The position numbers and the translations under genes were made by a program. The notes under the pieces are model-generated. The model saw only the letters and a list, made by a program, of their open reading frames with translations. It was not told where the DNA came from and searched no databases. DNA of 32,440 nucleotides from Melioribacteraceae bacterium. GTDB taxonomy: Bacteria > Bacteroidota > Ignavibacteria > Ignavibacteriales > Melioribacteraceae. Each line of letters opens with the position of its first letter. Positions within the stretch are counted from its first letter, which is position 1. Of the stretch, positions 2,798-21,179 are shown one piece after another. The stretch is from positions 1 to 32,440 of the forward strand of contig JAQICK010000097.1 of NCBI GenBank assembly GCA_027858595.1, read 5' to 3'.

Positions 2798-3796
2798 TTA
2801 TTTTCTGTAATGCACTAGGCTAAACCAATGGTTATCATCAGTAAGTATTTTTTCAACATTTAGCCCTGCCCAGCTTCCAAATTTACTTATGCTTTCTTCA
2901 CTAAATTTATGTGAATTCTCAGTGTGAATTGTTTCACCAGTCTTAATATAAATTCCATCTTTTCCAGAATTGGAAGTAATAATCATATCGTTCTTAGCTT
3001 TCAGATGCATTTCAATTCTTTCTTTTTCTCTGTCATAAAATGCAAGGTGCTCAAAATCAGCAGAATTAAAATTTGTCCCCACTAAGTTATTTACAACATT
3101 TAAAATATTTAAGTTAAACTTAGCTGTAATATATTTTGAATCGTTATATGCTTTCTCCAAAACTTCTATATCTTTTACCATATCCATTCCGAGTAAAAGA
3201 CAATCACCGCTCTCCATTTCTGAGCCTATGAGTTTTAGAAATTCTTCAATTTCTGAAATATTCATATTGCCAATTGTGCTACCAAAGAAACAGAAAAGTC
3301 TATTGCCCGATTCAGGCACCCAGCTTTTTTGATGAATATAATCAGCAACAATTCCATTTATAACTATTGATGGAAACTCTTCGGCTAATATCTCCGATGA
3401 TTTCTCTATAGCAGACTGACTAATATCTATTGGATAATATTTAATACCAGCTAAATCATTTTCTGGAATTTGACTAATTAGTAATCTAATTTTTGAAGCA
3501 TCGCCACTACCAAGTTCAATAATTGACATATTGGAAAAATCTAAATCCAGTTTTTGACCAATTGTTTGAATAATTGATTTCTCTGTACGAGTTGGATAAT
3601 ATTCATCCAGCTCTGTGATTTCCTCAAAGAGTTCAGAGCCTCTTGGGTCATAAAAAAACTTTGGGGAAATATATTTAGGATTTTCTTTAAGTCCTTTTAA
3701 TATCTCATCTTCTACTTTTTCAATACCAAGTTGAGGTAAGTGGTTTTCAAGATTAGTAACTACATCTGTATTTATTGTTTGTTCTGTATAATTCAT
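2798..3796 (-). CDS. egtD: SAM-dependent L-histidine N-alpha-methyltransferase, EgtD/EanA family (hercynine synthase)
   Basis: 332 aa with the EgtD hallmarks PKFFYDxRGSELFEEIT, EYYPTRTE, ELGSGxxxK, FFGSTIGN and ERIEMHL. It is collinear with mycobacterial EgtD as I remember that sequence. Confidence 0.85.
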   Translation of the reverse strand: MNYTEQTINTDVVTNLENHLPQLGIEKVEDEILKGLKENPKYISPKFFYDPRGSELFEEITELDEYYPTRTEKSIIQTIGQKLDLDFSNMSIIELGSGDASKIRLLISQIPENDLAGIKYYPIDISQSAIEKSSEILAEEFPSIVINGIVADYIHQKSWVPESGNRLFCFFGSTIGNMNISEIEEFLKLIGSEMESGDCLLLGMDMVKDIEVLEKAYNDSKYITAKFNLNILNVVNNLVGTNFNSADFEHLAFYDREKERIEMHLKAKNDMIITSNSGKDGIYIKTGETIHTENSHKFSEESISKFGSWAGLNVEKILTDDNHWFSLVHYRK

Positions 3797-3832
3797 TTTT
3801 AGTCTTCATATTATAAAATTAGTCTTAATACT

Positions 3833-4117
3833 TTAATCGCTTACTACTTTAACACCTTTCCAAAATGCAACATGATTTTTAATTTGCTCTGCTTTCTCTT
3901 TAGGATTAGGATAAAACCACGCTGCATCTTTGTTGGTCTTCCCATCAACTATTAGACTGTAATATGATGCTTCTCCCTTCCATGGGCATATGGAGTGCAT
4001 ATCACTATTTTCGAAATATTTATTATTTATAGAATTTACTGGGAAATAGTGATTATTTTCAACGACTACTGTTTCGTTGCTCTCTGCTATTATTTTGTTA
4101 TTCCAAATTGCTATCAT
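3833..4117 (-). CDS. DUF427 domain protein
   Basis: The sequence MIAIWNNKIIAESNETVVVENNHYFP...CPWKGEASYY...AAWFYPNP...FWKGVKV matches the DUF427 pattern. The ORF-track start at 4183 would run into a repeat element, so I prefer ATG 4117. Confidence 0.75.
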   Translation of the reverse strand: MIAIWNNKIIAESNETVVVENNHYFPVNSINNKYFENSDMHSICPWKGEASYYSLIVDGKTNKDAAWFYPNPKEKAEQIKNHVAFWKGVKVVSD

Positions 4118-4160
4118 TGTAATTCCTTTGTTTATTGAGCATTTGTAAAATAGTTTTAAT

Positions 4161-4272
4161 GTCATGCCATTTCGAACCAGCATTTTGGGAGAGAAATCTT
4201 ACTAAGCAATTGTTCGCATGCGATTTCTCAATCGTCCCGACAAAAAGAAATCGGGACTCATTTCGAATTACA
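4161..4272. repeat. GTCAT-module intergenic hairpin element (copy A)
   Basis: 4161-4200 reads GTCATgccaTTTCGAACCagcaTTTTGGgaGAGAAATCTT. This is about 80% identical to the reverse complement of 12587-12620. Internal inverted repeats are GAGAAATC (4191-4198) / GATTTCTC (4222-4229) and GTCCCGA (4234-4240) / TCGGGAC (4251-4257). Confidence 0.55.
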
Positions 4273-4289
4273 GATTCCATTGGTGAAAT

Positions 4290-5576
4290 TTATTCTGGCA
4301 CTCCTGTTTCATAAGGATTACTTGGGTCGTTACTCCATTCAAACCATCCACCATCGAATACTGAAACTCTTGGCCAACCCATTAGCCAGGCATTGTAAAA
4401 AGCTTCACTTCCTCTCCATCCAGTTCCGCAATAAAATGCTAAGTGCTTATTTGGAGTTATACTTGCACCCTTCCAAATTTCTTCAATTTCATGAAACTCA
4501 CGAGTTGTATGATCCAGATTTCTGTAGTTCTCCATGTGGTAAGCATCAGAACCACAATTTCCAAAAATTGCTCCTGGAATTCTTCCTTTCTTTTGGATGT
4601 AATTATATCCGCTTACTTCGCCAATAAATTCTGGCCAACTTCTAACCGAAACTAATTCTGCATCCTGCGATTTAAGCATTTCTTTCGCTTCTGGAATATC
4701 TACAGCAAGTTCAGGTTTGCTTGGAATATCAACTCCAAAATCGGCGACTGGAGTTTTAGAAATATCATCCATAGTTATTTCGTATCCTGCATCTTTCCAT
4801 GATAGAAATCCACCATTTAAAACTCTTACGTCTTTAACACCAGCATGCATCATAATAAATGCATTACGTATTGCACCAATATGACCGGCAGCACTACCTG
4901 GAAAATCATGATCATTATCAGGCTTCATGAATTTTCCGTATAAAATCACTGTTGTATCAGCAGTAATTCCGTGTTTCTCCAAGGCAAGTTTCAATTCTTC
5001 AGGAGAGCGTCTATTCCAAGTTTCGGGTGCCTCGAGAGCAAGCGTATCCAGATCAATTGCTCCTGGAATATGTCCAGAAAGATAAGCATCTCTATTTCTG
5101 TAATGAGCATGGACAATTACTGTTTTATTTCCTTTATGTTCAGGGGGTGTTCCACCATCAACAATTGTCTTAACCCAAGATGGATGCACAAGATGTTTAT
5201 AGCGTTCTAGTTTTTCCATTGGTAAATTTTCGTTTGCTGCCCACTCATTTACAAAATGGTTATATAACCTTATATCTTTGTATCCATTGATATTAAATGC
5301 TTCTGCTACTTTCATACTCTCTTCAAAGTTGTATCCGTAAACAATAATTTTATGTTCAGGTAAAATATCTTTTGTGCTAACTATTTCAGCCCAATCTATA
5401 TAATTAGTCCATTTTGCAGGTATGGCTTTTGCACCTTTGATGTGCACACCTCTAGTTTGGTTCTCATGCTGCCAGCCGTTGTAGGCATCCATTGAACGAA
5501 CATCAATAATTTTTATATTTTTATTATCTAATATATCTGTTAATTCTTTTGTTGATATTTCGACAAATTCTGTCAT
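4290..5576 (-). CDS. eanB: Multi-rhodanese sulfurtransferase, YnjE/EanB type (candidate anaerobic ergothioneine synthase)
   Basis: 428 aa with repeated rhodanese modules and a C-terminal active-site loop FYCGTGWRGSE. A strong SD (GGAGGAAtttATG) precedes the start. Assignment to EanB rests on linkage to the EgtD-family gene and on the absence of any EgtB-type gene in the window. Confidence 0.7.
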   Translation of the reverse strand: MTEFVEISTKELTDILDNKNIKIIDVRSMDAYNGWQHENQTRGVHIKGAKAIPAKWTNYIDWAEIVSTKDILPEHKIIVYGYNFEESMKVAEAFNINGYKDIRLYNHFVNEWAANENLPMEKLERYKHLVHPSWVKTIVDGGTPPEHKGNKTVIVHAHYRNRDAYLSGHIPGAIDLDTLALEAPETWNRRSPEELKLALEKHGITADTTVILYGKFMKPDNDHDFPGSAAGHIGAIRNAFIMMHAGVKDVRVLNGGFLSWKDAGYEITMDDISKTPVADFGVDIPSKPELAVDIPEAKEMLKSQDAELVSVRSWPEFIGEVSGYNYIQKKGRIPGAIFGNCGSDAYHMENYRNLDHTTREFHEIEEIWKGASITPNKHLAFYCGTGWRGSEAFYNAWLMGWPRVSVFDGGWFEWSNDPSNPYETGVPE

Positions 5577-5743
5577 AAATTCCTCCGTTTTTTAAACGTG
5601 TTTTTAATTTTGGTATTAAACTTTCTCGGAGAATTCTCAGAATAAGAGTGGTTGTCCGAAAACATTTTAAAATAGTTATCACTAATATCTTAAAAATTTA
5701 ATAAAGATGTTTTGTTTTAGATCCTCTGATAAATTAAGTGACT

Positions 5744-5801
5744 GTCATTTCTTCAAAAGGAATTCCCTCGAAGAGTTAGATTGACCTTTGGAAGAAATCA
5801 C
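5744..5801. repeat. GTCAT-ended intergenic hairpin (copy B)
   Basis: GTCATTTCTTCAAAAGG (5744-5760) pairs with CCTTTGGAAGAAATCAC (5785-5801): 15 of 17 positions are complementary, with a 24-nt loop. It lies 12 nt past the DUF5996 stop on the minus strand. Confidence 0.5.
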
Positions 5802-5812
5802 AATACGAAAAT

Positions 5813-6592
5813 TTATTTTGTAGAAACAATTAAATTGAAATTTTTATTTAGCAGCTCTGTGAATAATGAAAACAGAGCTGTGAATATTTCTTCTTGATTA
5901 GCTAATTGGTTTAATTTGACAACCAACCCATTCCACCCCTCTGTGTGCCACTCAGCAAATTCTGGCAATTCAATTTTTAAAAGTGTTTTGTCGAAAGGAT
6001 AGGCGGTTACATAAAAATATGGTTGCGGTATTCCTGCATCACCTGATGATAAACCAAAATTCATTTGCTCGCGCGAATAATCCCAATTAGTTTCGTCTTG
6101 CCCATCAATAAGCTTTCCAGAAAACACTAGCAATGCTAAATCGAAATGATGAGGCCAAAAGTTTATATTACTTTTTTCTTTTAATGTTGAACCCCGAAGT
6201 TTCAAAAACAAAAAATATACTTGGCGGAACAGATTCCACAATTTTGAAATTTCATACGAACTTAAAATAGCGACTAACTTTTTTGTAAACTCAGCAATTG
6301 ATGTTTGCTCAAGAGCAATTTCATCTCTGTTATTTTTGAAGAATATTTTAAGTTTATGTTCAATTAAATTTATGTTTAATTCAAGTGCTTCTATTCCATT
6401 ATCAGTTTGAATAGGAATGGAAGTGGTTGTAAATCCTTTTGCATAAACTTTTAAGCTAAACTCTTCCCAATTTTTTTGATGAGGAACCAGTTTCCCTTTT
6501 ATAGCACTAATCAATTGAGCATATATTTGAATAGTGTCTCTTGTTTTAGCAAAATTATTATATTCTATTTGCGGCAATATTATGATTTCCAA
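5813..6592 (-). CDS. DUF5996 family protein
   Basis: 259 aa. The N-terminal pattern (TRDTIQIYAQLISAIKGKL...KNWEEFSLKVYAKGFTTTSIP) and the C-terminal pattern (HFDLALLVFSG ... PYFYVTAYP) match my recollection of DUF5996 proteins. It starts 16 nt downstream of the preceding gene. Confidence 0.65.
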   Translation of the reverse strand: MEIIILPQIEYNNFAKTRDTIQIYAQLISAIKGKLVPHQKNWEEFSLKVYAKGFTTTSIPIQTDNGIEALELNINLIEHKLKIFFKNNRDEIALEQTSIAEFTKKLVAILSSYEISKLWNLFRQVYFLFLKLRGSTLKEKSNINFWPHHFDLALLVFSGKLIDGQDETNWDYSREQMNFGLSSGDAGIPQPYFYVTAYPFDKTLLKIELPEFAEWHTEGWNGLVVKLNQLANQEEIFTALFSLFTELLNKNFNLIVSTK

Positions 6593-6608: not shown

Positions 6609-8552
6609 TTATATTAATTCGACATCAGCCATAACTTCAACCATCGAAGGTCCACTGTGTTCAATGGCTTTCACTATTGCAGATTCTAAATCTTCCTTTT
6701 TTGTTACTCTAATCCCATATGCACCACAATTATTTGCATATTCAGAAAAATTGGGATTAACTAAATCAGTTTCCCAAACATTAAATTCATCAGCTTTTTG
6801 CTCTTTGGATATTTTTCCAAGTTCATTATTGTTTAACAAAATATGAGTGATATTCATATTATATTTTACAGCAGTTGTTAGTTCGGCCAAATATTGAGCA
6901 AATCCACCATCGCCAGTAATAGCTATTATTTTTCTATTTGGTTCTGCCGCAAAAGCTCCCATTGCTGCTGGATAACCAAAACCAATTGATCCAAGATAAC
7001 CTGACATAAGTATTGATTGGTTTTTACACTCAAAATATCTTCCAAAAGAATAAGCATTGTTTCCAACATCAACGGTTATAACTGCATTCTCTGGAACAAC
7101 ATTACTTAGCACCTCAAAAATTAGAGCAGAGTTTAATCCATTGCCATTGTCATCCTTTGTTCTGCTCGATTTTTCATCTCGCCATATTTTCCAACGTGAT
7201 GCAATATCATCACGTATTTTTGAATCGCCGGAATGTTGAATTAATCCGTTATTTAAAATATCAACAGTTGTTCCAATTTCTCCCCAAACCGGAATGTCAA
7301 CTTTATGAAATTTCCCAAGTGCCATCGGATCAAAATCAACTTGAATTATTGGTCGGAATGTAGCAATACCAGTATGATTAGAGAATGATGCTCCCAAAAC
7401 AATAATGAGATCCGAAGCATTCATAAAGTAGCTTGCAATCGGTGTTCCACTTCTTCCCAAAACTCCACACGCCAATGGATGAGAATCTGGAACTAATCCT
7501 TTTCCCTTAAATGTTGTAATTATCGGAGCTTCTATTTTCTCGGCAAACTTAATAATAGAACTCATATTAAACTTAGCTCCATTGCCAAGAATAATACACG
7601 GACGCTTCGCCGTTTTTATCTTTTCCATAGCATCTTTAACTGAACTAGCGGGAGGAGTTATTCTTAAATCAGTCAATCTTCCTTCTGGAGATGATGCAGG
7701 AGTTTCATCGCCTACTTCAATTTCTTGAACTTCGTTTGGAAATATTAAATGGGCAACATCTCTTTTTAAAATTGCATTTTTAAGTGCAAGCGTCATCAAC
7801 TCAGCATGTTTACTGGATGGCAAAACTGTTTGGCTCCATTCTGCAACTGAACTGAAAGCAGAGGATAAATTAACTTCTTGGAAAGCACCTGGACCTAAAA
7901 CTTGTGTATCAACTTGCCCAGTTAATGCAAGTATTGGAACTCTATCAACCTTTGCATCCCATAAACCAGTGAGCAAATTAGTTGAACCGGGACCAGCTAT
8001 TGCAAAGCATGCAGCGGGTTTTCCAGTAAGTTTTGCATAACCAGATGCTGCAAATGAAGCAGCTCCTTCGTGACGAATTCCAAAATATTTAAGTTTTCCT
8101 AACTCTACTTGTCGTCTTATTGCATCAGCCAATCCAAGATTTGAATGTCCGACCATACCGAAAACTGAATCAACTCCCCAGTTAATCATTGTTTCAACCA
8201 TTACATCGGATACAGTTTTAACGTGAGGTTTCTCTTCTTCAATTCCAATAGAGATGTTATCTTCATTCACTTCAATTGGATAAGTTGTAACTAAATCATC
8301 AAGTCCAGCCGGTGGTTTACCAGTGCAAGGATGATATTCATAACCGTGCCAAGGACAACGGAGCCATCCTTCTTCAATGGAGCCTTCGCCCAATGGGCCG
8401 CCTTGATGCGGACAGTGGTTATCAATTGCACGGAACTTTCCTTCAAACAAAGAAAGAGCAACAGTCTTTGTGCCAGCAGTTACAGTTTTTACACGACCTT
8501 CTTCAAAGTCACTAACCTTAGCAACCTTATACCACTTAATGATTTTTTCCAT
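6609..8552 (-). CDS. Rieske [2Fe-2S] domain fused to a thiamine-diphosphate enzyme (pyruvate oxidase / acetolactate synthase-like)
   Basis: The N-terminal ~105 aa carry CPH-x17-CPWH (all Rieske ligands present). The rest is a three-domain ThDP enzyme (GMVGHSNLGLADA..., IAGPGSTNL) with the ThDP motif GDGGFAQYLAELTTAVKYNMNITHILLNNNELG. Confidence 0.85.
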   Translation of the reverse strand: MEKIIKWYKVAKVSDFEEGRVKTVTAGTKTVALSLFEGKFRAIDNHCPHQGGPLGEGSIEEGWLRCPWHGYEYHPCTGKPPAGLDDLVTTYPIEVNEDNISIGIEEEKPHVKTVSDVMVETMINWGVDSVFGMVGHSNLGLADAIRRQVELGKLKYFGIRHEGAASFAASGYAKLTGKPAACFAIAGPGSTNLLTGLWDAKVDRVPILALTGQVDTQVLGPGAFQEVNLSSAFSSVAEWSQTVLPSSKHAELMTLALKNAILKRDVAHLIFPNEVQEIEVGDETPASSPEGRLTDLRITPPASSVKDAMEKIKTAKRPCIILGNGAKFNMSSIIKFAEKIEAPIITTFKGKGLVPDSHPLACGVLGRSGTPIASYFMNASDLIIVLGASFSNHTGIATFRPIIQVDFDPMALGKFHKVDIPVWGEIGTTVDILNNGLIQHSGDSKIRDDIASRWKIWRDEKSSRTKDDNGNGLNSALIFEVLSNVVPENAVITVDVGNNAYSFGRYFECKNQSILMSGYLGSIGFGYPAAMGAFAAEPNRKIIAITGDGGFAQYLAELTTAVKYNMNITHILLNNNELGKISKEQKADEFNVWETDLVNPNFSEYANNCGAYGIRVTKKEDLESAIVKAIEHSGPSMVEVMADVELI

Positions 8553-15825: not shown

Positions 15826-17458
15826 GGGTTTGCTGAAAAGCTCTATCCCCGCATAAATAAAGGGTCATGATAATAATAAACATGAAAAAGTGCAAATGTA
15901 TTAATATATTGTGTTCAAAAACCGTGCATTTTTTATAAGGAAAAAGGTCATCTTACATTACAAAAGTGAAAATCAAATAGAGTTATTCGAGTTTGAACAT
16001 CCCTTTGGTGGCAAATTAGACCCAACGAACAGATGGGTAAAGTTATCAAAAATACTACCGTGGGAAGAACTCATTAGCATTTACGGAAAAAGTTTATCAA
16101 CCAGTAAGGGAAGATACGGCATAGATGGACGACTAGCCGTAGGCAGTTTGATAATAAAACATAGATTAGGTTTAAGTGATAGAGAAGTAATCTCTATGAT
16201 TCAAGAAAATATTTATTTGCAATATTTTCTTGGTTTTCACAGTTTTAAGAAAGAGCCAGCATTTGATTCTTCCTTGTTTGTTCATTTACGCAAACGCTTA
16301 GGTTCAGTAGCCTTCGATGAAATGACGCAATTGATAATATCAGCTTCAGAGAGGATAAAGAACAAGAAGAACACAAAAACTTCATCAGATAATGTTTCGA
16401 CAGATAAAACTGACGGACATCATAAGAAAAAGCCAAACAAAGGAAAACTAAAGATAGATGCAACAGTAGCCGACCAAATGATAGAATACCCTACAGACCA
16501 TAGTCTGTTAAACAATGCTCGTGAAAAAAGCGAGAAAATAATTGATACACTCTACAAACAAACAGATTTGCGACAGAAGCCCCGTACTTATAGAAGGAAT
16601 GCTAGAAAAGCATATTTAAGTTTTTCAAAGATGAAAAAAAGAAGTAGGAAACAGATACGCAAAGCAGTAGGCAAACAACTCAGATACCTTAGCCGGAACA
16701 TAGGTCATATTCACAAATTGTTAGATATTTTTGATGAGAAAGAATTTCCATTAAGTAAAAAAGAGCAGAAGATATTTTGGATAATCCAAGAACTCTATAG
16801 GCAACAAGAGGAGATGTATAGAGAACACAAACATAGTACAAAAGATAGAATAGTCAATATTCATCAGCCTTATGTTCGTCCAATACCAAGGGGCAAAGCA
16901 AAATCACAGACTGAATTTGGAGCAAAAATAGGAGTATCTCTCGTAGAAGGCTTTAGCAGAATAACCACACTTAGTTGGGATGCTTATAGTGAGTCTAAGG
17001 ATTTAGAGAAACAAGTAGAAGATTACAATACACTTTACGGATGCTATCCCGAAGTGGTTCTAGCTGACAAAGCATATCTGACACGAGAGAATCGCAAATA
17101 TTTAAGAGAACTTGAAATACGAGTAACTGGGGCACCTATTGGGAGACCTAAAAAAGAGGAATCATATTATGAAAAAGCTAAGAAACGGAAAGAGAATAAT
17201 CAAAGAAATCACATAGAGGGTAAATTTGGTCAAGCAAAAAATGCTTACGGTTTAAGTAAAATAAGAGCCAGAAGACAAGACACATCTGAAAGCTGGATAG
17301 CTTCAATATTCTTTGTAATGAATTTGGTTAAATTCTTACATCTTTTTTATGCTCTTAAAAAGAAAGCATATTATTCCTTTATTGAGTCCTTTTTACTAAA
17401 TCAAATTATATTGAAACTTAGATTTAAGATTATTCTTCTTTAGAAATTCAGCAAGCCC
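15826..17458 (+). mobile_element. IS5-superfamily insertion sequence (IS1182-like by size), 1633 bp
   Basis: Terminal inverted repeats are GGGTTTGCTGAA (15826-15837) and TTCAGCAAGCCC (17447-17458), matching at 11 of 12 positions. They are flanked by TAATTA on both sides (15820-15825 and 17459-17464). There is a single transposase ORF. Confidence 0.85.
15911..17443 (+). CDS. IS5/IS1182-type DDE transposase with an InsH-like (DUF772) N-terminal domain
   Basis: 510 aa. N-terminal part: NRWVKLSKILPWEEL...DGRLAVGSLIIKHRLGLSDREVISMIQENIYLQYFLGF. C-terminal part: LADKAYLTRENRKYL...NHIEGKFGQAKNAYGLSKIRARRQDTSESWIASIFFVMNL. The start is GTG 15911 and no in-frame ATG is nearby, so it is uncertain. Confidence 0.9.
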   Translation: MFKNRAFFIRKKVILHYKSENQIELFEFEHPFGGKLDPTNRWVKLSKILPWEELISIYGKSLSTSKGRYGIDGRLAVGSLIIKHRLGLSDREVISMIQENIYLQYFLGFHSFKKEPAFDSSLFVHLRKRLGSVAFDEMTQLIISASERIKNKKNTKTSSDNVSTDKTDGHHKKKPNKGKLKIDATVADQMIEYPTDHSLLNNAREKSEKIIDTLYKQTDLRQKPRTYRRNARKAYLSFSKMKKRSRKQIRKAVGKQLRYLSRNIGHIHKLLDIFDEKEFPLSKKEQKIFWIIQELYRQQEEMYREHKHSTKDRIVNIHQPYVRPIPRGKAKSQTEFGAKIGVSLVEGFSRITTLSWDAYSESKDLEKQVEDYNTLYGCYPEVVLADKAYLTRENRKYLRELEIRVTGAPIGRPKKEESYYEKAKKRKENNQRNHIEGKFGQAKNAYGLSKIRARRQDTSESWIASIFFVMNLVKFLHLFYALKKKAYYSFIESFLLNQIILKLRFKIILL

Positions 17459-18240
17459 TAATTAGAATAGATTGATAGAATATCTTCTCTATCTGAATAC
17501 AATAATCCCGAAAGAATAATTTTTCCATTTGGAACTGTTAATTTGACAATAGATTCTGCAATGTCTAATAATATATGCTTATTAATATTGGCTAAAATTA
17601 AATCAAACGGTTCATCTTTTACATTACTAATTTCTGAAAGCCTAACCTCAACACTTGATTCAACTTTATTAAGTAAAATATTTTCATTCCCATTTTCTAT
17701 ACACCACTCGTCGTTATCAATTCCAACAACGTTTTCTGCACCCAAAAGCGATGCGGCAATTCCAAGAACTCCTGTTCCACTTCCAACATCTAGCACCCGT
17801 TTAGCATTTCCAATATGGTTTTCTAAAAATTGAAGAACCAATTTTGTTGTTTCATGCTCCCCTGTTCCGAAAGACATTTTAGGATCAATTGTAATAACAA
17901 GCTGATTCTCCTTTGGTTTGTATTCTCTAAATGTAGGCTTAATCACAATTCTGTCGTTTACTTCAATAACATTAATTGTCTTTTCCCATTCTGCATTCCA
18001 ATTTATTTCTTCAATGCTACTTTCAACAACCAAAAAGTTTTCAATTAAATTTTCACTTTTAATTTTTTCTAAAAATTCTTCTATTTCATGTTTTGATATT
18101 TCACTTTCGCCTTTTGCAAAAATAACCAAATTATTGTCGTATTCGTTTATGCCCTCAATGTCTAGTTGCCAAAGTAAGCCACTTAGTAAATCAACGTTAT
18201 ACGGTGTTGCTGTAATATTAAATTGTTTATGTGTTTTCAT
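17458..18240 (-). CDS. prmA: Ribosomal protein L11 methyltransferase, 3'-truncated by IS insertion (the stop codon spans the IS end)
   Basis: 260 aa with the PrmA pattern FGTGEHETTKL and the SAM motif VLDVGSGTGVLGIAA. The TAG stop at 17458-17460 uses the last base of the IS inverted repeat. Confidence 0.9.
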   Translation of the reverse strand: MKTHKQFNITATPYNVDLLSGLLWQLDIEGINEYDNNLVIFAKGESEISKHEIEEFLEKIKSENLIENFLVVESSIEEINWNAEWEKTINVIEVNDRIVIKPTFREYKPKENQLVITIDPKMSFGTGEHETTKLVLQFLENHIGNAKRVLDVGSGTGVLGIAASLLGAENVVGIDNDEWCIENGNENILLNKVESSVEVRLSEISNVKDEPFDLILANINKHILLDIAESIVKLTVPNGKIILSGLLYSDREDILSIYSN

Positions 18241-18402: not shown

Positions 18403-19821
18403 CTACTCCATGTTGGAAAGTATTTCACAAATTTCATCTTGGAAATTTCTAGCGGTGCGTGCACTACCAACAAAATTTTGTGTGTTTATTGAAAAAGAAA
18501 TTAAATCGCCACTTTTAGAATGCAGATAACCAGATAGTGCACTCACTCCACTTAGGGTTCCTGTTTTGGCGTGAACATTATTATGAGCAGTTCCTTTTTT
18601 CATTCTATCTTTAAGTGAACCATCAACACCAGCAATAGGAAATGAGTTATAAAGCACATCAAATAATTTTGGATGATACAAGTTCATATAAATTAATATT
18701 TCATTCAACAATTCATCAGAGACAAGATTGTAGTGTGAAACACCTGAACCATCTACAAGTCTGTAATTTTTTGGGTTTAGACCCACCTCTACTATTAAAC
18801 TATCAAGAAGCTTTATACCTTTTTTAGCCGAGGCATATTTCCCATATCTTTCAAATGCCATAGCACGCAAGGTCATTTCTGTGCTTAGGTTATCACTATC
18901 TTTATTAAGATTTATAATTACTTCACTAAAAAGTCTTTCTTTTGTTACAATTTCTTTTGCATTATCTGGAGCTATTTTAATTCCACAAGTTCCATCAAAA
19001 CCTATTTTGTTTTTTTGCAAAGTCTCTTTAGCAAGAGTTAAAAAATATTTATTTGTGTGTCTAAGGTTTACCATTATAGTATCTGGTTCTGCATCAACAA
19101 ACAATCCGCCTTCCAGAATTAATGAATCGCTTCTGTTAATCCAATCTCTGCTTACTATTAAATCAGATGTGTCATTATCAACTGTAACAATATTGTTAGT
19201 AAACTTAAAATAGTTAGATTCTGGAATTGTAAATATACTTGCCTTTTCGCCCAACAATGATGGTGCAATTACCACATACATTGAAACGTCATTTATAACA
19301 AGTGGTGTCATGTATGGGAAATTATATGAAGGATCATCATCCCACATCCAACCGTTCCCCCAGAAAAGTGAATCCATGTTGGAAACATCTGAGTAGATAT
19401 TTCCAGTAATTTTATTTATGCCTTCATCTTTTAATTGCATTATCATTGTATCTAAATCTGCTGATGTAAAATCAGGATCAAATCCACCAATGAAATAGAG
19501 ATTACCATTTAAAACTGAATCTTCAATTTTTCCATCATATTTTATTTTTGTTTTAAATTTATATTCTGGACCAAGAAAGCATAGAGCAGTTGTAGTTGTA
19601 ATTAGCTTCATGTTTGAGGCAGGTCTGAAAAGAAGCTTTTCGTTATGCCTAAAAACAATTTCTTTCTTGGTTATATTATATGCATCAACGCCAACTTGGC
19701 ATGTCTTGAAAAATGGATCACACAACAGATATTCTAATTCATCAGCAGTAGTGAATTTTTTTTCTTGTGCAAAAAAACTGGTTGTAAATAGAACGAATAA
19801 AACGGCAAATAATTTCTTCAT
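18403..19821 (-). CDS. dacB: D-alanyl-D-alanine carboxypeptidase/endopeptidase, PBP4 (peptidase S13)
   Basis: Signal peptide MKKLFAVLFVLFTTSFFA, SxxK motif SNMK, DGSGVS, and KTG in KTGTLSGVSALSGY. Confidence 0.9.
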   Translation of the reverse strand: MKKLFAVLFVLFTTSFFAQEKKFTTADELEYLLCDPFFKTCQVGVDAYNITKKEIVFRHNEKLLFRPASNMKLITTTTALCFLGPEYKFKTKIKYDGKIEDSVLNGNLYFIGGFDPDFTSADLDTMIMQLKDEGINKITGNIYSDVSNMDSLFWGNGWMWDDDPSYNFPYMTPLVINDVSMYVVIAPSLLGEKASIFTIPESNYFKFTNNIVTVDNDTSDLIVSRDWINRSDSLILEGGLFVDAEPDTIMVNLRHTNKYFLTLAKETLQKNKIGFDGTCGIKIAPDNAKEIVTKERLFSEVIINLNKDSDNLSTEMTLRAMAFERYGKYASAKKGIKLLDSLIVEVGLNPKNYRLVDGSGVSHYNLVSDELLNEILIYMNLYHPKLFDVLYNSFPIAGVDGSLKDRMKKGTAHNNVHAKTGTLSGVSALSGYLHSKSGDLISFSINTQNFVGSARTARNFQDEICEILSNME

Positions 19822-21179
19822 TAAAAATACTCCCTTTCTCTAAAGTTAGCTCCAATTTCATTTATTACAAATTGTTTTGCATTTTCTGTGTCAACTGAAC
19901 TAAGACCCACAATAGACATTACAACGTTGGTATATTCTTTGGCCTTCTTTGCAAAGTCAATCATTTCAGCATGAAGACTTTCATCCACGCGCATTAATTT
20001 TGCGTATTGAACTTTATCTGTGGAATTTAAACTAATTGAAACAGTATCAATTGTATCTTTTAATTCTGAAGTAATATCACGTTTATTAATAAAATTACCG
20101 TGGCCATCACTATTCATCCTAGTTTTGCCCCCGTTTGCTTTTACATAGGTTGCAATCTCTTTTACAACTTCCCATCGGATTGTTGGCTCGCCATATCCAC
20201 AGAAAACAATTTCATTGTATTTTGAAGGATCACCAATTTCAGAAATGTATACTGATGCTTCCGGTTCCTCAGCCTTACTCATTTTAAGACTATAGCCATT
20301 TATAACAGCATCACCTTTTCTGTCACAGAAAACACAATCCGAATTGCATCTGTTTGTAACATTTACATACAGAGATTCGCCAATTTGATATGTAAAACTT
20401 AATTTCATTCTCTCTCCAATTCCAAAAAGTTTGAATGCATTCCACGAAGTTGTACGAGCAACATCTTCAATTCTTAAATGATGAGTTTCAGCAACAACTT
20501 CTGCTATAAGTGGAATATGTTTCGACTCGTTTCGCTTTCCTCTGTGTGGCACTGGAGTTAAAAACGGAGAATCTGTTTCGAGCAAAATATTTTCGACACT
20601 TACTTTTGATAACACTTCACGAATACTATCGGCATTTTTGAAAGTTATGTTTCCAGTAAACGAAATGTAGTGCCCCATCTCAACTAATTCTCTTGCATTT
20701 TCAACTGTTCCAGCAAAACAATGATATTGGGCTTTGAGTGATGTGTCTTTATACTTTCGAGCAAATTCCATTATATCATCATTCGAATCGCGGTTGTGAA
20801 TAATGACAGGTAAATCAAGTTCTAAAGCTAATTGAATTTGTTTATCAAACGCTTGATGTTGTTTATTCTTTGGCGAAAAGTCGTAAAAATAATCGAGACC
20901 AATTTCACCAATGGCAACAACCTTTTTGTGTTTTGCTAATTCTCTTATTTCATCTATCCAAGTGTCATCCCAATCTTTTGTGTCGTGTGGATGAACTCCA
21001 ACAGCAGCATAAACAGATTCATATTTTTCAGCTAATGCAATAGCTTGTTTGGAAGTCTCAATATCTGTTCCAGGAACAAGCATATATTTCACTCCAGAAT
21101 CCAGAGCGTTTTTAATTACTTCGTCTCTATCTTCATCAAAATTTTTGAGAAATAGATGTGTGTGTGAGTCTATAAACAT
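19821..21179 (-). CDS. TatD-family metal-dependent hydrolase fused to a TatD-associated radical SAM domain
   Basis: The N-terminal ~255 aa are TatD-like (MFIDSHTHL, GEIGLDY, ETDSPFL). The C-terminal ~190 aa carry NVTNRCNSDCVFC (CX3CX2C) and FCGYGEPT. The stop overlaps the dacB ATG by 1 nt (TAATG at 19819-19823). Confidence 0.85.
   Translation of the reverse strand: MFIDSHTHLFLKNFDEDRDEVIKNALDSGVKYMLVPGTDIETSKQAIALAEKYESVYAAVGVHPHDTKDWDDTWIDEIRELAKHKKVVAIGEIGLDYFYDFSPKNKQHQAFDKQIQLALELDLPVIIHNRDSNDDIMEFARKYKDTSLKAQYHCFAGTVENARELVEMGHYISFTGNITFKNADSIREVLSKVSVENILLETDSPFLTPVPHRGKRNESKHIPLIAEVVAETHHLRIEDVARTTSWNAFKLFGIGERMKLSFTYQIGESLYVNVTNRCNSDCVFCDRKGDAVINGYSLKMSKAEEPEASVYISEIGDPSKYNEIVFCGYGEPTIRWEVVKEIATYVKANGGKTRMNSDGHGNFINKRDITSELKDTIDTVSISLNSTDKVQYAKLMRVDESLHAEMIDFAKKAKEYTNVVMSIVGLSSVDTENAKQFVINEIGANFREREYF

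Follow-up and report, generated by a model that had tools for sequence, protein, structure and literature searches.

The question raised by this locus is what a small DUF427 gene is doing between two genes resembling those of an ergothioneine pathway. The locus lies in a stretch of 32,440 nt (the window) from contig JAQICK010000097.1 of a Melioribacteraceae bacterium, whose GC content is low (approximately 32%). A sequence-only reading of this DNA had proposed an EanA/EanB-type, oxygen-independent ergothioneine locus with an embedded DUF427 gene. Its three open reading frames are all present where it had placed them, on the minus strand. The features discussed here are as follows.

8571–10199, minus strand: Rieske plus glutamate-synthase FMN-domain-like fusion, 542 aa
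6609–8552, minus strand: Rieske plus TPP-enzyme fusion, 647 aa
5813–6592, minus strand: DUF5996 gene, 259 aa, PF19459
5577–5812, minus strand: region upstream of eanB, 235 nt, with an imperfect long hairpin
4290–5576, minus strand: eanB, 428 aa, three rhodanese-like domains, loop FYCGTGWRGSE
4118–4289, minus strand: eanB–DUF427 spacer, 172 nt, stem-loops with a core hairpin at 4234–4257
3833–4117, minus strand: DUF427 gene, 94 aa, PF04248, CPWKGEASYY motif
2798–3796, minus strand: eanA/egtD, 332 aa, Methyltransf_33, motifs YYPTRTE and FFGSTIGN

Read from the sequence, the eanB stop codon is 172 nt from the DUF427 start, and the DUF427 stop is 36 nt from the eanA start. The eanB stop to eanA start distance is 493 nt, i.e. 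both genes lie on one strand within 0.5 kb, as had been noted.

The eanB product shows three stretches of similarity to the Pfam Rhodanese model (E-value = 8.4e-40). In a phmmer search of PDB sequences, residues 3–428 match C. limicola EanB (6ktv) with a score of 668.5 bits and an E-value = 4.6e-200, whereas YnjE scores 291 bits. The identity is 65% to the crystallised C. limicola protein and 40% to YnjE. Structures of C. limicola EanB are 6KTV and 6H98. In the alignment, C383, Y324, T385 and R388 of the window protein correspond to C. limicola C412, Y353, T414 and R417, and PDB entry 6kw0 shows a Phe at exactly the Tyr353 column. The 59-residue spacing between Tyr324 and Cys383, offered earlier as a sign of EanB, is thus real and aligns with Tyr353 and Cys412, but it has no diagnostic value, since both this Tyr and the CGTGWR loop are found in E. 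coli YnjE as well. YnjE also has the three-domain architecture in common with EanB, and the protein could on these grounds be read as a YnjE-type thiosulfate/molybdopterin-synthase sulfurtransferase in a locus that makes no ergothioneine. This reading is already disfavoured and appears extremely unlikely. Scores and identities place the protein on the EanB side. It carries the EanB-specific 15-residue insertion PDNDHDFPGSAAGHI (residues 219–233), which is missing from YnjE, as well as a HAHYRNRDAY block, and it does not have the export-type N-terminal extension of YnjE. The genomic context differs as well. E. coli ynjE is found with the ynjBCD ABC transporter genes, whereas the window gene adjoins an EgtD equivalog whose histidine site is intact, and a methyltransferase gene is beside eanB in 38 of 50 orthologous loci.

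The eanA product matches Methyltransf_33 (E-value = 1.5e-100) and exceeds the NCBIfam cutoff for the egtD equivalog TIGR03438 (344.9 bits, cutoff 290.9); against EgtD structures in the PDB it scores 187 bits. All ten histidine-site residues of EgtD that were checked are kept in EanA (Y49, F57, Y66, T174, N177, Y217, T224, M263, E293 and S295). The assignment to the EgtD family of histidine methyltransferases is therefore borne out at the sequence level, since the equivalog cutoff is passed and the histidine site is kept. EanA would act as a SAM-dependent L-histidine N-alpha-trimethyltransferase converting L-histidine to hercynine, and EanB would form ergothioneine by transferring the Cys383 persulfide sulfur onto hercynine at its imidazole C2. 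No EgtB/OvoA-type gene is present in the window, as tblastn of the whole window and Pfam searches of the larger open reading frames agree with the earlier claim. The same searches detect no PLP C-S lyase or GR-type flavoprotein in the window, and no EgtE or EgtUV homologues are found there. Together eanB and eanA show, on the sequence comparisons, a predicted bona fide oxygen-independent ergothioneine pathway.

A pathway of this kind, consisting of EanA and EanB, was reportedly described in Chlorobium limicola by Burn and co-workers in 2017. The two systems are alike in having the same two enzymes encoded on one strand; EanB keeps its catalytic Cys, Tyr, Thr and Arg, and EanA qualifies as an EgtD equivalog whose histidine site is intact. 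Unlike C. limicola, the window has a DUF427 gene between the two, and it continues upstream into the DUF5996 gene and two Rieske-fusion flavo/TPP enzymes. A Chlorobium-type locus (L073) shows eanB–eanA and no DUF427 within 10 kb. Compared with aerobic EgtB/EgtD clusters, with or without EgtE and EgtUV, the product and the EgtD-family first enzyme are the same. However, the C-S bond is formed there by an iron sulfoxide synthase and in the window by a rhodanese persulfide.

The upstream genes are probably members of an extended cluster, which with DUF5996 is probably a redox cluster. DUF5996 (PF19459, E-value = 4e-29) displays an invariant WPHHFD motif; its AF2 model (pLDDT 84) has no fold match in the PDB. 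DUF5996-like open reading frames are found in 10 of 80 EanB loci. The 6609–8552 product contains Rieske and TPP_enzyme_N, M and C domains and is pyruvate-oxidase/acetolactate-synthase-like, but it reaches no NCBIfam equivalog (the best, pyruvate oxidase, gives 416 bits with a cutoff of 742). Homologues with 62–65% identity are near eanB in four loci (L025, L033, L043 and L059). The 8571–10199 product combines Rieske and Glu_synthase domains. Homologues of this Rieske-GltS protein are near eanB in 9/80 loci, from Bacteroidota, Ignavibacteria and Chlorobiota MAGs, in varying order, and in two loci (L171 and L172) the DUF5996 gene is situated between Rieske-GltS and MsrB.

The eanB gene had also been described as insulated on both sides by GTCAT-type hairpins. 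Stem-loops do exist on both sides, but they are unrelated in sequence and have no GTCAT element in common. The GTCAT...ATGAC pattern is found once in the window, elsewhere than in these hairpins and no more often than by chance. Hairpin 4234–4257 is moderately stable, with a 7–8 bp stem (−15.6 kcal/mol, z = −2.9), and the region 4150–4289 folds with −35.1 kcal/mol (z = −2.4). The upstream hairpin (5729–5816; −26.5 kcal/mol, z = −2.5), likewise moderately stable and situated just past the DUF5996 stop codon, has arms at 5729–5760 and 5785–5816 that are 75% complementary. Neither hairpin shows a U-tract, a repeat elsewhere in the window, or an Rfam family match. The structure in the 4118–4289 spacer may be a partial terminator or an RNA-processing/stabilising element. 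The eanB–DUF427 junction itself is not conserved: it measures 172 nt in the window and 35 nt in L017, and an extra 122 aa gene occupies it in L081. The region 5577–5812 probably contains the eanB promoter; a sigma-70-type scan, with 31 sites found and 31 expected, adds no information on this.

The longest DUF427 open reading frame (3833–4183) encodes 116 aa. An internal ATG at 4117, preceded by AAAGGAA, gives a 94 aa protein, and this start agrees with homologues, which have 92–94 aa and in every case an M-[KI]-A-[IV]-W-N N-terminus. The protein matches PF04248 (E-value = 2.3e-32). The CPWKGEASYY motif pointed out earlier is present and its CPWKG segment holds the only Cys of the protein, C44, found in 52 of 53 diverse representatives. 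Residues Y24, F25, K47 and F85 are invariant and W46, Y52, W67 and Y69 nearly so; 13 of the 94 residues are aromatic.

Linkage of DUF427 to ergothioneine genes was scored within 10 kb of eanB in 50 loci from different species, each with at least 3 kb on both flanks. DUF427 is found in 19 of these (38%), in at least five gene orders, which answers the earlier question of recurrence. Well below one locus is expected by chance (binomial p < 1e-12 at a generous p0 = 0.05). Eight loci show DUF427–eanB–eanA, seven eanB–DUF427–eanA as in the window, and four eanB–eanA–DUF427; DUF427 is on the eanB strand in 25 of 26 cases, mostly less than 1 kb away. In an unbiased clustering of open reading frames from EanB loci, DUF427 ranks second among the neighbours, behind the methyltransferase, and no family besides eanB/eanA and DUF427 exceeds 11 of 80 loci. 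In the other 31 of the 50 loci DUF427 is missing within 10 kb, including Chlorobium-type L073 and all Salinimicrobium genomes.

Seen from the DUF427 side, the linkage is broader than the sequence-only reading supposed, and spans aerobic EgtB/EgtD clusters and an EgtUV-like transporter operon. Thirteen DUF427-anchored loci from metagenomes have flanks of at least 6.5 kb on either side; 10 of them contain EgtB and a Methyltransf_33 gene, and 8 contain a flavoprotein gene. Such egt-context clusters come from Bacteroidota and from soil and marine metagenomes, and some include an EgtE-like PLP enzyme. Locus L086 shows Aminotran_5, DUF427, flavoprotein, ABC ATPase, a permease/OpuAC fusion, EgtB (TIGR03440, 527 bits, cutoff 360) and EgtD in that order, and L083 (Aequorivita) shows EgtB–EgtD–DUF427. 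In L081, with the order eanB, 122 aa open reading frame, DUF427, flavoprotein and eanA, the DUF427 protein is 80% identical to that of the window. The DUF427 gene of L168 runs into the start of an ABC ATPase gene, after which comes an EgtU-like fusion; ergothioneine biosynthetic genes are absent within 8 kb. The binding domain of this fusion scores 184–194 bits against solved EgtUC ergothioneine-binding domains, but choline-binder-derived sensors score equally, so that it is a putative ergothioneine binder. Of eight DUF427 homologues looked up singly by exact sequence, five have no ergothioneine gene within 6–8 kb. One of these five lies amid copper-homeostasis genes and one near AhpC/thioredoxin genes.

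The ean-linked and egt-linked DUF427 proteins share a mean identity of 62%, with zero discriminating alignment columns. These comparisons show a single orthologous subfamily, which on sequence serves all the ergothioneine contexts, and they show DUF427 to be a predicted conserved accessory of ergothioneine loci and not a passenger. Linkage to aerobic and transporter contexts indicates that DUF427 is probably not specific to the sulfur chemistry of EanB. This bears on the possibility that DUF427 is a persulfide/sulfur carrier feeding EanB Cys383, as a dedicated part of the anaerobic pathway. A single Cys that hardly varies, the position beside eanB in many loci, a genuine DUF427-rhodanese fusion (found on four contigs) and a DsrE-like sulfur-relay gene at the end of the L025 cluster would all fit such a carrier. 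The physiological sulfur donor of EanB is also debated; according to a review, the active site closes off a tunnel and may be out of reach for IscS. Yet the linkage of the same subfamily to O2-dependent EgtB/EgtD clusters is no less tight, and there sulfur comes from cysteine or gamma-glutamylcysteine and no persulfide donor is needed. The subfamily also occurs in the transporter-only operon L168, and in aerobes the gene found most often directly beside DUF427 encodes an NAD(P)H disulfide reductase rather than a desulfurase. A role as sulfur carrier is thus improbable.

The flavoprotein belongs to the glutathione-reductase family (class I disulfide reductases), and in 18 loci its start is 1–67 nt past the DUF427 stop. 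CxxxxC is present in 23 of 26 members and HxxxxE in 15 of 15 full-length members; among proteins of solved structure, RclA, LpdA, MerA and mycothione reductase are the closest. In aerobes the most common arrangement puts DUF427 in close translational proximity to the flavoprotein gene, with egtD approximately 4 kb away. This spacing argues against DUF427 being a partner or regulator of EgtD/EanA that binds hercynine and relieves product inhibition or channels hercynine, as does L168, where only an EgtUV-like importer is present and no methyltransferase is found within 8 kb. A methyltransferase partner also leaves the conserved Cys and the thioredoxin and rhodanese fusions unexplained. The idea draws on Methyltransf_33 being the commonest co-neighbour in both ean and egt contexts, on the 36 nt separating DUF427 from eanA in the window, on the egtB–egtD–DUF427 order of several aerobic loci, and on a conserved aromatic core that, from its sequence, may be compatible with trimethylammonium binding. 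We regard it as quite doubtful.

The AF2 model of DUF427 (pLDDT 97.5) has as its best Foldseek match 3DJM, a DUF427 crystal structure (TM 0.85), and the modelled fold is a beta-tent, the fold class of MsrB (SelR), GFA, CULT, yippee and Mss4. MsrB was absent from the Foldseek matches; yippee and LGP2-RD were the only ones of this class, with weak scores. MsrB reduces an oxidised sulfur compound in a Cys-dependent manner, and CULT has an aromatic cage for small ligands. Unlike MsrB and related beta-tent proteins, DUF427 does not have the four-Cys zinc site, and it shows no significant sequence similarity to MsrB. Single examples of a DUF427-thioredoxin (WCGPC) fusion and of a DUF427-PAS-histidine-kinase fusion were also seen.

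All the DUF427 contexts share only the ergothioneine molecule and no one C-S chemistry; therefore DUF427 most likely acts on ergothioneine. By guilt by association, the chances appear slightly better than even that ergothioneine itself is the target of DUF427, as a one-cysteine protein of thiol-redox or ligand-binding function. The conserved aromatic core of the Cys44 beta-tent protein would bind the betaine/imidazole moiety, and the protein would have a part in managing the thiol-redox state of ergothioneine, e.g. by reducing or exchanging disulfide, sulfenate or persulfide forms. The adjacent NAD(P)H flavoprotein, where there is one, would supply the electrons; in anaerobes with none nearby, as in the window, other reductants would do so, and the neighbouring Rieske-flavoenzyme module is a possible source. 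DUF427 would thus fill for ergothioneine the place of a redoxin/disulfide-reductase pair such as glutaredoxin/glutathione reductase, mycoredoxin/mycothione reductase or bacilliredoxin/bacillithiol-disulfide reductase, which likewise combine a small Cys protein with a class I flavoprotein (CxxxxC, HxxxxE) in or beside a thiol biosynthetic cluster. DUF427 is a predicted beta-tent with one Cys and not a thioredoxin fold, and tblastn of the window finds no flavoprotein disulfide reductase beside DUF427, so that the proposed reductant is missing here; both points count against a redox role. According to published work, C. limicola EanA and EanB yield ergothioneine in vitro and in heterologous hosts with no DUF427, and DUF427 is therefore not required for synthesis.

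It is rather unlikely that DUF427, with or without the flavoprotein, serves general oxidant or metal-stress defence, i.e. that it is a parallel antioxidant, co-localised and co-regulated but not acting on ergothioneine. The best characterised relatives of the flavoprotein do point that way (RclA, for reactive chlorine and copper, and the HOSCN-reductase-type MerA), as do the many generic redox genes near EanB (AhpC/TSA, FMN_red, NmrA-like and NDH-2-like), the five singly retrieved homologues with no nearby ergothioneine gene, and the upstream Rieske-GltS/DUF5996 module, which elsewhere travels with MsrA and MsrB. However, the association of DUF427 is much stronger than that of any generic redox family. 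It survives many rearrangements, two unrelated biosynthetic chemistries and an importer, which is how functional partners, more than loosely co-regulated genes, typically behave.

A literature search found no work tying DUF427 to ergothioneine and no description of a dedicated bacterial ergothioneine reductase. DUF427, as a protein that may act on ergothioneine itself, makes a good candidate for a component of ergothioneine biology that has gone unrecognised.

The ergothioneine genes of the window are three neighbours on one strand:

4290–5576, minus strand: eanB, 428 aa, with three rhodanese stretches (Pfam, E = 8.4e-40)
3833–4183, minus strand: longest open reading frame of the DUF427 gene (Pfam PF04248, E = 2.3e-32), 94 aa when read from the ATG at 4117
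2798–3796, minus strand: eanA/egtD, 332 aa (Pfam Methyltransf_33, E = 1.5e-100)

The intergenic distances are 172 nt between eanB and the DUF427 gene, 36 nt between the DUF427 gene and eanA, and 493 nt between eanB and eanA. The ATG at 4117 is almost certainly the true DUF427 start, since AAAGGAA stands before it and since the homologues all have a length of 92–94 aa and an M-[KI]-A-[IV]-W-N N-terminus. The open reading frames and Pfam matches confirm the three-gene arrangement that a sequence-only reading of this DNA had described, and all of the sequence motifs quoted there are found in the genes.

The window EanB aligns end to end with Chlorobium limicola EanB (6KTV) at 65% identity (668.5 bits, E = 4.6e-200), whereas YnjE, the three-domain rhodanese of E. 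coli and the next family, gives 290.9 bits and 40% identity. EanB proteins are cytoplasmic, of about 430–460 aa, with three rhodanese-like domains, and the 428-aa protein displays this form; the N-terminal extension of YnjE is missing from it. The importance of EanB Cys412 (the persulfide carrier), Tyr353, Thr414 and Arg417 is known from published mutagenesis and QM/MM work, and C383, Y324, T385 and R388 of the window protein align with these. The register at Y324 is confirmed by PDB entry 6KW0, which has a Phe in exactly that column. However, YnjE carries the same four catalytic-site residues, which are thus a necessary but non-discriminating feature; when E. coli ynjE is aligned to the window EanB, the Tyr is present and the CGTGWR loop is identical. 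The Cys/Tyr spacing on which the sequence-only reading had relied is therefore correct but not diagnostic, and Tyr353/Cys412 was rejected as an EanB marker. What separates EanB from YnjE, besides the overall identity and the missing N-terminal extension, is an EanB-only insertion of 15 residues, PDNDHDFPGSAAGHI, present at residues 219–233 of the window protein, and a HAHYRNRDAY block is a further discriminator. Scores, identity and insertion together identify the window rhodanese as an EanB and not a YnjE-type protein. An EgtD-type methyltransferase adjoins eanB in 38 of 50 orthologous loci, as it does in the window. The window EanB is predicted to convert hercynine to ergothioneine without O2.

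The window EanA passes the NCBIfam EgtD equivalog model TIGR03438 (344.9 bits, cutoff 290.9) and fails the EasF subfamily model (177 bits, under the 205.6 cutoff). Ten histidine-site positions of mycobacterial EgtD were compared (Tyr39, Phe47, Tyr56, Thr163, Asn166, Tyr206, Thr213, Met252, Glu282 and Ser284), and the window EanA has the identical residue at each. Met252 is presumably a residue of the histidine site. The other nine are named as histidine-binding in the published EgtD paper. The assignment as an EgtD-type methyltransferase thus stands, with an intact histidine site, and the predicted reaction is trimethylation of histidine to hercynine.

The methyltransferases adjacent to EanB form two classes (the genes in loci L025, at 11302–12264, L043 and L079 versus the window gene at 2798–3796). 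Those of class I are 46–74% identical to the window EanA, and where DUF427 is present the gene order is always eanB-DUF427-eanA. Those of class II are 29–34% identical to it and differ at only two histidine-site positions (T163N and M252S), both differences being common to the aerobic Aequorivita EgtD. In Salinimicrobium spp. (L034, L035, L041, L054, L063, L064) an EanB orthologue of 69–71% identity has no Methyltransf_33 gene within 10 kb, so that EanA would be coded elsewhere or hercynine acquired.

A tblastn search with Bacteroidota EgtB shows no EgtB/OvoA sulfoxide synthase in the window, and none of the larger open reading frames has an FGE-sulfatase/DinB_2-type Pfam domain, which bears out the earlier statement that no such enzyme is present. 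Neither a PLP lyase nor a glutathione-reductase-type flavoprotein is detectable in the whole window by tblastn and Pfam. The sequence evidence places the locus firmly in the oxygen-independent EanA/EanB pathway. The EanA/EanB pair is already known, and the window is a new instance of it in a different lineage.

Stem-loops are found on both sides of eanB, as had been claimed. That at 4234–4257, in the spacer between eanB and the DUF427 gene, has a delta G of −15.6 kcal/mol (z = −2.9), and an imperfect long hairpin lies at 5729–5816 (z = −2.5). The further claim, that these are copies of a GTCAT-type element insulating eanB, is rejected: the two share no common sequence, have no U-tracts, no Rfam match and no further copies in the window, the core hairpin is unique, and the GTCAT..ATGAC pattern is present in the window at chance frequency. 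The spacer itself is not conserved, being 35 nt in L017 and holding an extra gene in L081. The hairpins are ordinary intercistronic structures. A sigma-70 promoter scan gave as many sites as expected and is uninformative; promoters of other types are probably at work in these organisms.

Upstream of eanB lie three further genes, separated by 16–18 nt from each other and by 235 nt from eanB:

8571–10199, minus strand: Rieske-GltS(FMN)-like gene
6609–8552, minus strand: Rieske-TPP (pyruvate-oxidase-like) gene
5813–6592, minus strand: DUF5996 gene, TTG start, 259 aa

Homologues of these genes are found near eanB, in varying orders, in about 9–10 of 80 loci from Bacteroidota, Ignavibacteria and Chlorobiota MAGs, i.e. 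in two phyla (besides the window, L017, L025, L031, L033, L043, L044, L059 and L068). The L025 homologues lie in a same-strand array of 13 kb, together with genes for an NDH-2-like flavoprotein, a DUF3179 protein, a DsrE-like protein and an EgtUV-like transporter. In two distant loci (L171, 7364–10305; L172, 7365–10309) Rieske-GltS and DUF5996 genes are followed directly by MsrB (SelR), with MsrA divergent and upstream; thus the pair keeps company with genes of sulfoxide repair and not solely with those of ergothioneine. These arrangements suggest that the upstream genes and eanB belong to a larger conserved cluster, and suggest for the upstream genes the role of an electron-supplying redox-repair module. 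DUF5996 homologues are mostly about 275 aa long with an invariant WPHHFD motif. The family yields no structural relative (AF2 pLDDT 84; best PDB neighbour at E = 0.07; phmmer against PDB empty), and nothing on it was found in the searchable literature.

Elsewhere in the window, an IS5/IS1182-like insertion sequence at 15820–17464 codes for a DDE transposase of 510 aa (DUF772 + DDE_Tnp_1_2); its 18-bp terminal inverted repeats are 94% complementary, and the right one overlaps the stop end of prmA (17458–18240). At 19821–21179 a TatD-type hydrolase domain and a radical SAM domain are fused in one protein of 452 aa, an unusual architecture, and a separate radical SAM/SPASM protein is found at 10415–11359. 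A GBBH-like_N (DUF971) gene (12078–12416, 112 aa) and a PIN-domain gene (11640–11990, 116 aa) separate the redox cluster from an HD-domain phosphohydrolase gene; the PIN gene has no obvious antitoxin partner.

The linkage of DUF427 to eanB was assessed in a scan of one genome per species. At least 577 genomes encode an EanB relative, and the best 80 loci were used, mostly from Bacteroidales, Marinilabiliales, Ignavibacteria and Chlorobiota MAGs, with some isolates. By tblastn, 26 of the 80 have DUF427 no more than 10 kb from eanB; in 25 of these 26 the two genes share a strand, and the distance is usually less than 1 kb. Where both flanks extend for 3 kb or more the count is 19/50 loci (38%), so the proximity remarked on in the sequence-only reading does recur, and in several orders: DUF427-eanB-eanA in 8 loci, eanB-DUF427-eanA, the window order, in 7, eanB-eanA-DUF427 in 4, plus others. 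When the 1,857 open reading frames of the 80 loci are clustered without bias, only the methyltransferase is a commoner neighbour than DUF427, and no other family is found in more than 11 loci. Chance predicts far fewer than one such locus (p < 1e-12, even when the background is set generously), and the linkage, far above chance, is thus real. It is not universal, as no DUF427 is nearby in the Chlorobium-type locus L073 or in several Salinimicrobium genomes. A 281-aa NmrA-like NAD(P)-binding protein is coded directly 5′ of eanB in 11 loci, 10 of them lacking DUF427 (at 69–185 nt in L005, L008, L015, L016, L018, L028, L058 and L077); this may point to an alternative accessory gene or to an effect of lineage.

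Homologues of the window DUF427 number in the thousands. All of the closest 120 are single-domain proteins of 92–112 aa (nearly all 92–98) with 65–80% identity, and aerobic Bacteroidota are included among their hosts. The locus of the closest relative, L081, reads eanB, a 122-aa open reading frame, DUF427, a Pyr_redox_2 flavoprotein, eanA. In Aequorivita capsosiphonis (L083) the order is EgtB-like, EgtD, DUF427, with a divergent Aminotran_5 gene. A metagenome scan with DUF427 as anchor gave 80 loci, 13 of them with at least 6.5 kb on each side; EgtB and Methyltransf_33 genes are found in 10 of these 13 and the flavoprotein in 8. A complete aerobic island is seen in L086 (8705–16260), where Aminotran_5, DUF427, GR/MerA-family flavoprotein, ProV-like ATPase, permease/OpuAC, EgtB (527 bits against TIGR03440) and EgtD genes follow one another, and similar islands are found in L089, L090, L107, L109, L110, L134, L151, L153 and L164. 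A third context is displayed by L168 (8001–10692), where the DUF427 gene runs into the start of an ABC ATPase gene and a permease/OpuAC (EgtU-like) fusion comes next; no biosynthetic ergothioneine gene lies within 8 kb, which makes the context transporter-only. The binding domains of the permease/OpuAC fusions match solved EgtU ergothioneine-binding domains with 184–194 bits, a top or near-top match tied with sensors derived from choline binders. DUF427 proteins from ean and egt contexts share a mean identity of 62% between groups and 61–70% within them. No alignment column discriminates the two, separate clades are rejected, and by this comparison the copies are one subfamily.

The flavoprotein coded beside DUF427 in other loci is a class I disulfide reductase, with CxxxxC in 23/26 members and the C-terminal HxxxxE in all 15 full-length ones. 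Of the 59 DUF427 loci whose downstream sequence is long enough, 15 have its start within 600 nt downstream on the same strand, and the distance from the DUF427 stop is 1–67 nt in 18 loci. The L081 protein passes the NCBIfam model 'FAD-containing oxidoreductase' PRK06370.1-4, which is uninformative. Among characterised proteins the closest to it are RclA, LpdA, MerA/HOSCN reductase, mycothione reductase and glutathione-amide reductase. The layout of a redoxin and reductase pair, with a small Cys protein beside a CxxxxC flavoprotein, is seen in relatives but not in the window.

The window DUF427 scores 111 bits against PF04248 (cutoff 22.1), and its AF2 model is all-beta (pLDDT 97.5) and superposes on 3DJM, the sole solved family member, with a TM score of 0.85. 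After 3DJM, Foldseek gives weak matches to yippee and LGP2-RD domains; MsrB is not retrieved with the DUF427 model. The beta-tent fold (Lupas et al.) is common to MsrB, GFA, CULT and Mss4, with DUF427 systematically devoid of the zinc site. The two CxxC pairs, zinc site and catalytic Cys typical of MsrB and the zinc beta-tents are not found in DUF427. With one Cys, no zinc site and no MsrB match, it stands outside the MsrB family, and the likeness is limited to fold and proposed chemistry. The sole Cys, C44 within CPWKG, is kept in 52 of 53 representatives of 43–62% identity; Y24, F25, K47 and F85 are invariant and W46, Y52, W67 and Y69 nearly so. His23 and His41 vary among diverse representatives, which argues against a metal site, and a His/Cys site was rejected.

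An exhaustive profile search gave 6,288 representative clusters, of which the best 150 include several fusions. A genuine fusion of DUF427 with a rhodanese is found on four contigs in an archaeon-like context (P0308/P0391; L173, 9001–9630). Fusions with a WCGPC thioredoxin and with a PAS-Hpt-histidine kinase are also among these 150, each seen once on a short contig and for that reason weak; the rhodanese fusion alone is replicated. The same 150 hold one protein with four tandem DUF427 repeats.

DUF427 thus accompanies ergothioneine loci as a conserved accessory, however the C-S bond is made, and is often coupled with the disulfide reductase and an EgtU-like transporter. It is very probably a functional part of ergothioneine metabolism. 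We infer that the common denominator of its contexts is ergothioneine itself, which speaks against DUF427 donating sulfur to EanB and also, though less strongly, against its being a partner of EgtD. It is not essential for synthesis, since C. limicola EanA and EanB alone yield ergothioneine in vitro and in heterologous hosts. The conserved Cys, aromatic core, reductase coupling, rhodanese and thioredoxin fusions and MsrB-type fold together suggest that DUF427 handles ergothioneine, or oxidised forms of it, by thiol-redox chemistry. DUF427 would then be an ergothioneine 'redoxin' and the adjacent flavoprotein, where present, its reductase, the pair regenerating ergothioneine from disulfide, sulfenate or persulfide forms in aerobic makers, anaerobic makers and importers alike. 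A serious alternative is a general defence against oxidants, made up of DUF427 and the flavoprotein and sharing no more than its regulation with the ergothioneine genes; among eight DUF427 homologues looked up individually by exact sequence, five have no ergothioneine gene within 6–8 kb. That the two proteins are the missing ergothioneine-specific redox-recycling system of bacteria is a tentative proposal, drawn from guilt by association, and we hold it to be rather unlikely.

Ergothioneine is a widely studied antioxidant, made solely by microbes and accumulated by animals. The other major low-molecular-weight thiols (glutathione, mycothiol, bacillithiol, trypanothione and CoA) each have a dedicated reductase, usually with a small redoxin. 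We know of no dedicated bacterial reductase or redoxin for ergothioneine. A DUF427 structure was reportedly solved in 2008, and its function is said never to have been explained. In the searchable literature, outside of which most subscription journals lie, the one paper that bears on DUF427 is that on the beta-tent fold, no paper links DUF427 or PF04248 to ergothioneine, the coupled flavoprotein and the aerobic-cluster and transporter-operon links of DUF427 are not found, and 'ergothioneine reductase' gives nothing.

A protein of 93–94 aa thus tracks ergothioneine genes across two unrelated chemistries and an importer. The two small soluble proteins offer a cheap handle, with Thermophagus xiamenensis DSM 19012 (gene order DUF427-eanB-eanA) and Aequorivita capsosiphonis (egtB-egtD-DUF427) as cultured carriers, and there may be relevance to engineered producers built on eanA and eanB. 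The DUF427 linkage makes the question of a dedicated bacterial ergothioneine redox system directly testable, and the proposal, if true, would for the first time assign a function to this Pfam DUF, whose representative clusters number more than 6,000.
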